Shown here: positions 32,350-33,036 of the stretch, one piece after another
Numbering within the stretch: the stretch's first letter is position 1
Layout of the letters: every line of letters begins with the position of its first letter
IMG/VR virus record: IMGVR_UViG_2874945390_000011
Reading direction: 5' to 3' (one strand)
Source of the DNA: a virus
Taxonomy: Duplodnaviria; Heunggongvirae; Uroviricota; Caudoviricetes
Length of the DNA stretch: 42,488 nucleotides
The notes under the pieces: generated by a model
What the model saw: the letters and a program-made list of their open reading frames with translations, nothing else
The model's database searches: none
Told to the model about the DNA's origin: nothing
Made by a program: the position numbers and the translations under genes

Positions 32350-33036
32350 TCACTCCTTCTCTTCTTTACCGTAGTGGAGTTGACCAATTTTGATAAGAGG
32401 GCGTCCCTGAGATTTGCGGTGTAGATTGGTATCGCGCAGAGAATACACACAGCCACAATATTCCTGCTGATAGAATTTTTCGCGCTTGCTGATTTCAATC
32501 ATACGGGACGAGCCGCCCTGCTTGCGCCAGTTATAATCCCAGTACACCATGCCCGGATAATGCGCGACGGCTCGCCGCCCACAGTCGTTAACCTGCTGCA
32601 TATTTTTCCAGCGTGAAATGCCCAGTGAACTGCTGATCACACTGAAACCATTTTCAGCGGCGTACAGCGCTGTCCGCTCAAAACGCATGTCAAAACACAT
32701 GGTGCAACGGATCCCTCGTTCGGGCTCCCATTCCATTCCTTTGGCTCGTTCAAACCAGTTGTCTGTGTCGTAATCAGCATCAATAAACGGCACGCCGTGT
32801 TGTTCAGCAAAGCGAATATTCTCATCCTTACGAATTAAATACTCTTTCTGAGGATGAATGTTCGGGTTGTAGAAAAAGATGGTGTAGTCGATTCCCGAGG
32901 CCTGAAGCGCCTCCATCACCTCACCGGAACATGGAGCACAGCAAGAGTGCAGTAGTAGTTTGTTTGCCCCGTTTGGGAGCTCCAATTTGGGCCGTTTGAA
33001 ATCAGCAACTGTCATAAATATGTTTATTGGGGTCAT
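32350..33036 (-). CDS. QueH-like protein (DUF208 epoxyqueuosine reductase family)
   Basis: 228-aa ORF with Cys motifs [26 protein letters not shown] and YCGCVYS that I recall as characteristic of DUF208/QueH; no search possible. Confidence 0.5.

Follow-up and report, generated by a model that had tools for sequence, protein, structure and literature searches.

Cobalamin is not synthesized de novo by E. coli and Shigella. The queuosine pathway of these bacteria runs via Tgt and QueA, which produce oQ34-tRNA (PMC5372724), and the Shigella gene is known as tgt/vacC (PMC1950534). The enzyme for the final step, QueG, depends on cobalamin (PMC4646009). According to the passage of PMC6850298 that cites Frey et al. 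1988, oQ and not Q builds up in E. coli and Salmonella on glucose-salts medium without B12. QueH was named as a cobamide-independent alternative to QueG (PMC6461909), and its T. maritima representative is structurally characterised (PDB 7LC5, 7LC7, 9DEU). S. aureus keeps both a B12-dependent QueG and an iron-dependent QueH, which the authors related to differing cofactor availability (PMC13443448). Bases derived from preQ0 are known from phage DNA (PMC6884629), and Hutinet et al. 2019 reported no QueA, QueG or QueH homologues among the viruses they analysed (PMC6884629). Our literature searches for QueH or DUF208 together with phages or prophages found no paper on the gene described here.

Here we describe a queH gene in the window, i.e. 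the whole stretch of 42,488 nt that was analysed. It belongs to a lambdoid prophage whose insertion site lies between ybhA and pgl. Except for three IS elements, the window is 99.4-99.5% identical to a twin prophage in E. coli FDAARGOS_944 (NZ_CP065613.1), aligned over window positions 10757-42488; for positions 1-10756 the correspondence to the twin was assumed and this part was judged through the annotation of the twin. According to the ORF listing, the queH ORF is ATG-initiated, encodes 228 aa and is located on the minus strand. The features of the prophage, by position in the window, are the following.

1057-2820, plus strand: gene for an IpaH-type type-III-secretion effector of 587 aa with LRR_TTSS and NEL E3-ligase domains (ipaHb in the twin)
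25727-26239, plus strand: gene for a DedA/VTT-domain membrane protein, flanked by the lysis genes and the terminase and encoded on the opposite strand
28186-28496, minus strand: cluster of four tRNAs (Gly-UCC, Thr-UGU, Arg-UCU and a CAU tRNA)
28686-29360, minus strand: DUF1133/Q-like antiterminator
29489-30752, 37504-38645 and 40396-41659: three IS insertions absent in the twin
32033-32292, minus strand: hok/sok type I toxin-antitoxin, directly downstream of queH (hokD annotated in the twin)
32117-32292, minus strand: sok RNA (RF01794, 117 bits)
32344..33086, minus strand: queH mosaic cassette of ~743 bp, consisting of the CDS and a 50-bp leader, delimited by blastn against HannyBb, O157:H7 Z1832 and E. 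coli 042
32350..33036, minus strand: queH CDS, based on the ORF listing, Pfam PF02677, PDB 7lc5, RefSeq WP_012421537.1 and dN/dS
33184-33597, minus strand: Zn-ribbon-like ORF of 137 aa, with a sub-threshold zinc-ribbon match (21 bits versus a cutoff of 29)
33598-34020, minus strand: DUF977
34035-34781, minus strand: IstB/DnaC-like replication gene
34788-35564, minus strand: replication gene

The protein gave a single Pfam match, PF02677 (QueH), which scored 220.6 bits (E 1.9e-65; gathering score 23.5) and covered the profile end to end (positions 1-174 of 175). An earlier note on this DNA had read the ORF as QueH/DUF208 from three cysteine motifs and had named a profile search as the result on which this reading would stand or fall; the search, the conserved residues and the predicted fold all agree with it. 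The motifs themselves (CCAPC, CTMC and CGC) were read directly from the sequence.

32929..32943, minus strand: motif 1, C32-C33-A-P-C36, corresponding to C9-C10-A-P-D13 of T. maritima QueH
32695..32706, minus strand: motif 2, C111-T-M-C114 (CxxC), in invariant columns and preceded by the invariant E106 and R110
32449..32457, minus strand: motif 3, C194-G-C196, in invariant columns, inside Q191-x-Y-C-G-C-x-x-S199

When 1.84 billion cluster representatives were searched exhaustively, 4755 relatives were obtained. In an alignment of 34 sequences, comprising 32 diverse full-length relatives, the window protein and T. maritima QueH, 15 columns are invariant (C32, C33, N59, E65, R69, E106, R110, C111, C114, K144, Q191, C194, G195, C196 and S199). 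The window protein keeps all 15 of them as well as 14 of 14 near-invariant columns. At position 36, Cys occurs in at least 90% of the 34 diverse QueH sequences; here the window protein has the majority form and T. maritima the Asp13 variant. The T. maritima mutants C9S and D13N were deposited in the PDB, hence these positions were functionally probed. As Li et al. reportedly found in 2021, the cysteines of the CCxP(C/D), CxxC and CGC motifs ligate a [4Fe-4S] cluster and an adjacent iron.

A sequence search of the PDB matched T. maritima QueH only (7lc5 and its mutants; E 5e-22, residues 27-203). An AlphaFold2 model of the window protein (pLDDT 77.4, pTM 0.78) was compared with known structures by Foldseek, and T. 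maritima QueH entries took the first five places (E ~1e-11, target TM 0.84-0.87 and rmsd 2.3-2.7 A for the predicted model). For 7lc5 the values were E 1e-11, target TM 0.85 and rmsd 2.5 A over 180 columns. The next matches, TtuA and LarE of the adenine-nucleotide-alpha-hydrolase fold, were six orders of magnitude worse (E ~1e-5). The predicted fold is adenine-nucleotide-alpha-hydrolase-like and can be superposed on the solved QueH. A QueG-type domain, i.e. a cobalamin-binding part with a 2x[4Fe-4S] ferredoxin, was not among the Pfam results, which gave PF02677 only. The NCBIfam HMM scan gave no match, a result that says nothing on how the PGAP name of the protein arises, except that a different type of rule must underlie it, and the PHROGs assignment was phrog_3217, which is annotated as function unknown. 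In every family-defining feature that can be checked in silico, the predicted protein agrees with an intact, conserved QueH.

This identity is publicly annotated. The RefSeq/PGAP product name for the identical protein WP_012421537.1 is "epoxyqueuosine reductase QueH", PGAP uses this name also for the gene in the twin prophage, and the E. coli copies bear it throughout among the matches listed. Enzyme identity, family, reaction and protein name are thus already known, and their identification adds nothing new. The mildly new point is the location in a phage; otherwise this queH is ordinary.

The second ATG of the ORF (M8, at 33015) is probably the actual start, which would give a QueH of 221 aa, because WP_012421537.1 begins there, because the amino acid differences among the prophage copies cluster in residues 2-10 and because the corresponding residue is where the Providencia orthologue begins and its alignment starts. 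Among the copies, the seven codons that separate the two ATGs (33016-33036, minus strand) vary while the remainder of QueH is nearly invariant, and this segment may be leader rather than coding sequence. On inspection of the sequence, no clear Shine-Dalgarno element was seen ahead of either ATG.

Along the minus strand of the prophage, a Cro-like and YdaT-like regulatory region is followed by the replication genes, DUF977, the Zn-ribbon-like ORF and queH. Downstream of queH follow sok/hok, a small ORF, DUF1367, an IS element, DUF1364, the Q-like antiterminator, the four tRNAs and the lysis and structural genes. With the replication genes (34035-35564) on one side and the Q-like antiterminator (28686-29360) on the other, queH occupies the nin-equivalent region, where the earlier note had placed it, and is co-directional with the early-right operon. 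The Zn-ribbon-like ORF between DUF977 and queH is absent from that position in the elements of 042, O157 and HannyBb. The tRNA cluster, which had been put at about 4 kb from queH, is indeed 3.85 kb away, 1.26 kb of which is IS, but it is unrelated to QueH. None of its anticodons (UCC, UGU, UCU and CAU) is of the GUN type that receives queuosine. Therefore, none of the four tRNAs is a QueH substrate and their proximity is coincidental. The CAU tRNA (28420-28496, minus strand) was called as Met by ARAGORN and is annotated as tRNA-Ile of the lysidine-dependent type in the RefSeq twin; the related prophage of E. coli 042 has only two of the four tRNAs.

Two of the three IS insertions are copies of one IS3-family element (rve transposase of 272 aa), and the third is of IS630 type (DDE_3). 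The prophage is probably defective, because the insertion at 29489-30752 falls where DUF1364 meets DUF1367, with queH on one side and the Q-like antiterminator on the other. The ipaH gene lies at the tail-fibre end of this prophage, and its IpaH-type effector marks the element as a Shigella-type virulence-converting prophage. The DedA/VTT gene looks like another cargo gene.

Pairwise blastn comparisons delimited a discrete segment around queH. In 3/3 elements (HannyBb, O157:H7 Z1832 and E. coli 042), a match of 94-95% identity starts exactly at window position 33086, which is 50 bp ahead of the first ATG. On the downstream side the matches end at different points (32344, 32187 and 31890), and the flanking sequences are either unrelated or 79-90% identical. 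The common breakpoint, the differing ends and the divergent flanks together define queH as a discrete mosaic cargo cassette. As a discrete module with sharp mosaic boundaries in a variable slot, which would be dispensable for phage functions, it fits a moron, or accessory cargo. Slot and orientation of queH are alike in the four independent elements; in E. coli 042, O157:H7 Z1832 and HannyBb the gene is placed right after a ydaU/ydaV-DUF1627-DUF977 replication block. The 042 element is a Rac-like prophage adjoining trkG. Different genes fill the positions around the slot. In K-12 Qin, relBE takes the place of queH just upstream of hokD, and the pairing of queH with hok is common, yet not obligatory. 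In O157:H7 Z1832 (NZ_CP062708.1, 7872-9882), a DNA cytosine methyltransferase and an NgoMIV-family endonuclease lie directly downstream of queH, replacing hok/sok; this NgoMIV-type restriction-modification pair characterises the slot as a hotspot for conflict genes.

The gene was found at a coverage of at least 80% in 985 of 5426 complete E. coli genomes (~18%) and is absent from 82%; among the 995 genomes with any match, these 985 carry it in full length. The host gene queG, a separate 1140-bp chromosomal gene away from the prophage queH, is present in 5426/5426 of the genomes, so that 985/985 of the queH carriers also possess it. In IMG/VR, 216 viral contigs contain a relative, and identity is 99% or more in each of the best 80 of 216. 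HannyBb alone is convincing among 25 "phage" records that tblastn matched to QueH; in this isolated phage the gene is annotated as "hypothetical protein". We rejected MT835504.1 ("UNVERIFIED: Bacteriophage sp.", 49.6 kb) as a QueH phage. Judged by its neighbour genes it is bacterial chromosomal DNA, since at 13000-28300 its QueH lies among ABC transporters, argH (argininosuccinate lyase), a semialdehyde dehydrogenase and topoisomerase I. The records of 280-380 kb named "Acinetobacter phage MD-2021a" and "Staphylococcus phage" that match QueH are similarly suspect. With HannyBb as the one convincing record of 25 and MT835504.1 being bacterial, the idea of a recurrent capture of QueH by many phage lineages was dropped.

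Among the matches listed, the named relatives from outside E. coli are Enterobacterales QueH proteins at 80-86% identity, from the genera Erwinia, Providencia, Proteus, Photorhabdus, Gibbsiella, Ewingella, Pantoea, Dickeya and others; two metagenome clusters among these matches are closer, at 90% identity. Hence, the view of the earlier note that enterobacteria normally use QueG applies to E. coli, with queG in every complete genome, but does not extend to the many Enterobacterales that carry QueH. The chromosomal proteins of Providencia and Erwinia are 84-86% identical to the window QueH. In Providencia, the one genus examined for gene order, the orthologue (84%) sits in the core-chromosome context arsC-dapE-...-tmcA-[queH]-...-purC-bamC. 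Because of this core-genome neighbourhood, the phage queH looks like a captured Enterobacterales housekeeping gene.

For the four copies (window, HannyBb, O157 and 042), dS reached a maximum of 0.09-0.29 and dN was 0.002-0.021, giving dN/dS of about 0.02-0.085. Within the window prophage, queH is untouched despite the three IS insertions. The low dN/dS and the intact gene beside three IS argue for a maintained protein function and against a decaying passenger. Considering also the PF02677 score, the queH ORF is not due to chance.

Based on these data, we consider it likely that the window ORF encodes a functional QueH that is carried as back-up cargo for host QueG and has no need of B12. The encoded enzyme would be an iron-sulfur, cobalamin-independent tRNA epoxyqueuosine(34) reductase, converting oQ34 to queuosine on tRNA-Asp, -Asn, -His and -Tyr, and its substrate would be host tRNA already processed by host Tgt and QueA. 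The gene may have been captured from an Enterobacterales chromosome into the 743-bp cargo cassette of Rac/Qin-like lambdoid phages, where it would ride in a variable slot that directly follows the replication module. In E. coli and Shigella, which always carry QueG, the phage enzyme could free the last queuosine step from the B12 supply, and cells might benefit in B12-free niches or upon loss of the BtuB importer. Such a selective benefit is a conjecture, because no phenotypic difference between oQ-tRNA and Q-tRNA was found documented in the literature searched.

Transcription would be expected by read-through from the early(-right) promoter, possibly at a low level in lysogens. Read-through is the default assumption because queH is co-directional with the early-right operon and because no promoter could be recognised for the cassette itself. 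A consensus scan of the coding strand near queH, which weak or non-sigma-70 promoters can escape, found no sigma-70-like promoter and no terminator, and the leader fold of the 147-nt spacer upstream of queH was unremarkable (z = -1.8). The retention of queH under purifying selection even where the prophage is defective is a hint that lysogens express it to some extent.

Rather than being a back-up for QueG, queH could be a neutral hitch-hiker, encoding an active or once-active enzyme without benefit that is kept by linkage to the replication module and hok/sok. Its redundancy with the universal queG, the lack of an own promoter in the consensus scan and the adjoining hok/sok, which can stabilise nearby DNA, are all compatible with this, as is the absence of a codon-usage signal: queuosine-decoded codons are not enriched in the phage (15.3% in late genes versus 14.6% in the host flanks), and the NAU share is 54% in phage late genes versus 59% in host flanks. 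However, a dN/dS of about 0.02-0.085 at dS values of up to 0.29 indicates sustained purifying selection on the protein, and linkage alone does not fit with the full-length state of queH in 985 of the 995 genomes with a match, with its sparing in a prophage bearing three IS or with the fact that the cassette recombines independently of hok in HannyBb and O157 Z1832. We therefore judge neutral carriage to be unlikely. Still less probable is a function in genetic conflict, in which QueH would alter the wobble base of GUN anticodons and thereby evade or provoke anticodon nucleases, or would act on another epoxide or nucleic-acid substrate. The tRNAs that bear queuosine are precisely those cleaved by certain toxins, for instance colicin E5, and the slot holds conflict genes: relBE in K-12 Qin, an NgoMIV-type restriction-modification system in O157 Z1832 and hok/sok in the window. 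On the other hand, the PADLOC defence models match neither QueH nor its two small neighbours, the blastn-defined cassette contains no partner gene, and the protein, at 84% identity to the housekeeping QueH and with its invariant residues in common, gives no sign of neofunctionalisation.

The earlier note had also entertained a 7-deazaguanine-related pathway. As a component of a phage DNA-modification pathway of this kind, QueH would share no more than queuosine-pathway chemistry with the known systems. QueH acts downstream of QueA, on tRNA-bound oQ. In addition, the twin prophage has no annotated queC/D/E, folE, tgt or dpdA from the integrase to ipaH (with window 1-10756 covered via annotation only), and none was detected among the 17 window ORFs scanned with Pfam; neither set includes a DpdA/Tgt-like transglycosylase, FolE, QueD, QueE or QueC. 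Moreover, 2'-deoxy-queuosine was absent from every phage DNA tested (Hutinet et al. 2019, PMC6884629). This possibility is effectively refuted, and we assign it hardly any probability.

Returning to the reading of queH as back-up cargo for QueG, what has so far been unreported in the literature searched is a temperate phage lineage that spreads a queuosine-specific tRNA enzyme, with carriers comprising ~18% of complete E. coli genomes, a Shigella-like ipaH prophage and one isolated phage. Possibly, though we offer this tentatively, it is the first documented queuosine-specific tRNA-maturation enzyme of a bacteriophage and a gene of the lysogenic-conversion type, which would uncouple the final Q step from cobalamin and change the decoding of Asp, Asn, His and Tyr codons. 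If true, fitness or the translation of Shigella VirF could shift where B12 is scarce, or in phage- or colicin-resistant cells deficient in BtuB. Shigella virulence depends on tgt (PMC1950534, PMC5395182). A link between the phage queH and Shigella virulence is possible, and the Shigella-like setting, with ipaH and the IS3-family and IS630-type elements, is suggestive. Should B12 independence hold, the locus would offer a simple, testable case of a prophage that adjusts the tRNA modification of its host to the cofactors available.

Compared to known systems, the window QueH is closest to the chromosomal QueH of Morganellaceae, Erwiniaceae and relatives, with 80-86% identity over nearly the full length, shared CCAPC, CxxC and CGC motifs and a common basic C-terminal tail, RDTNxHRKSQGRxxIKIG. 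The difference lies in the context, since the Providencia copy belongs to the core chromosome, whereas the window copy is part of a prophage mosaic cassette in a QueG-positive host. With T. maritima QueH it shares the predicted fold, the six cysteines and the other invariant residues, but the identity is only 30-33%, Asp13 there corresponds to Cys36 here, and the window protein has ~25 extra C-terminal and ~20 extra N-terminal residues. E. coli QueG, which depends on cobalamin and 2x[4Fe-4S], catalyses the same reaction from oQ34-tRNA to Q34-tRNA in the same cells, but its family and fold are unrelated to those of QueH and it needs cobalamin (PMC4646009, PMC6461909). The 7-deazaguanine clusters of phages such as 9g, CAjan and others likewise bring queuosine- or archaeosine-pathway genes into phage genomes; these encode DpdA and preQ0 synthesis, modify DNA and are reported to lack QueA, QueG and QueH (PMC6884629), whereas the window element has QueH only. 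As in S. aureus, both epoxyqueuosine reductases occur in one genome; there both genes are chromosomal, while here the second enzyme is prophage-borne and present in ~18% of E. coli genomes.
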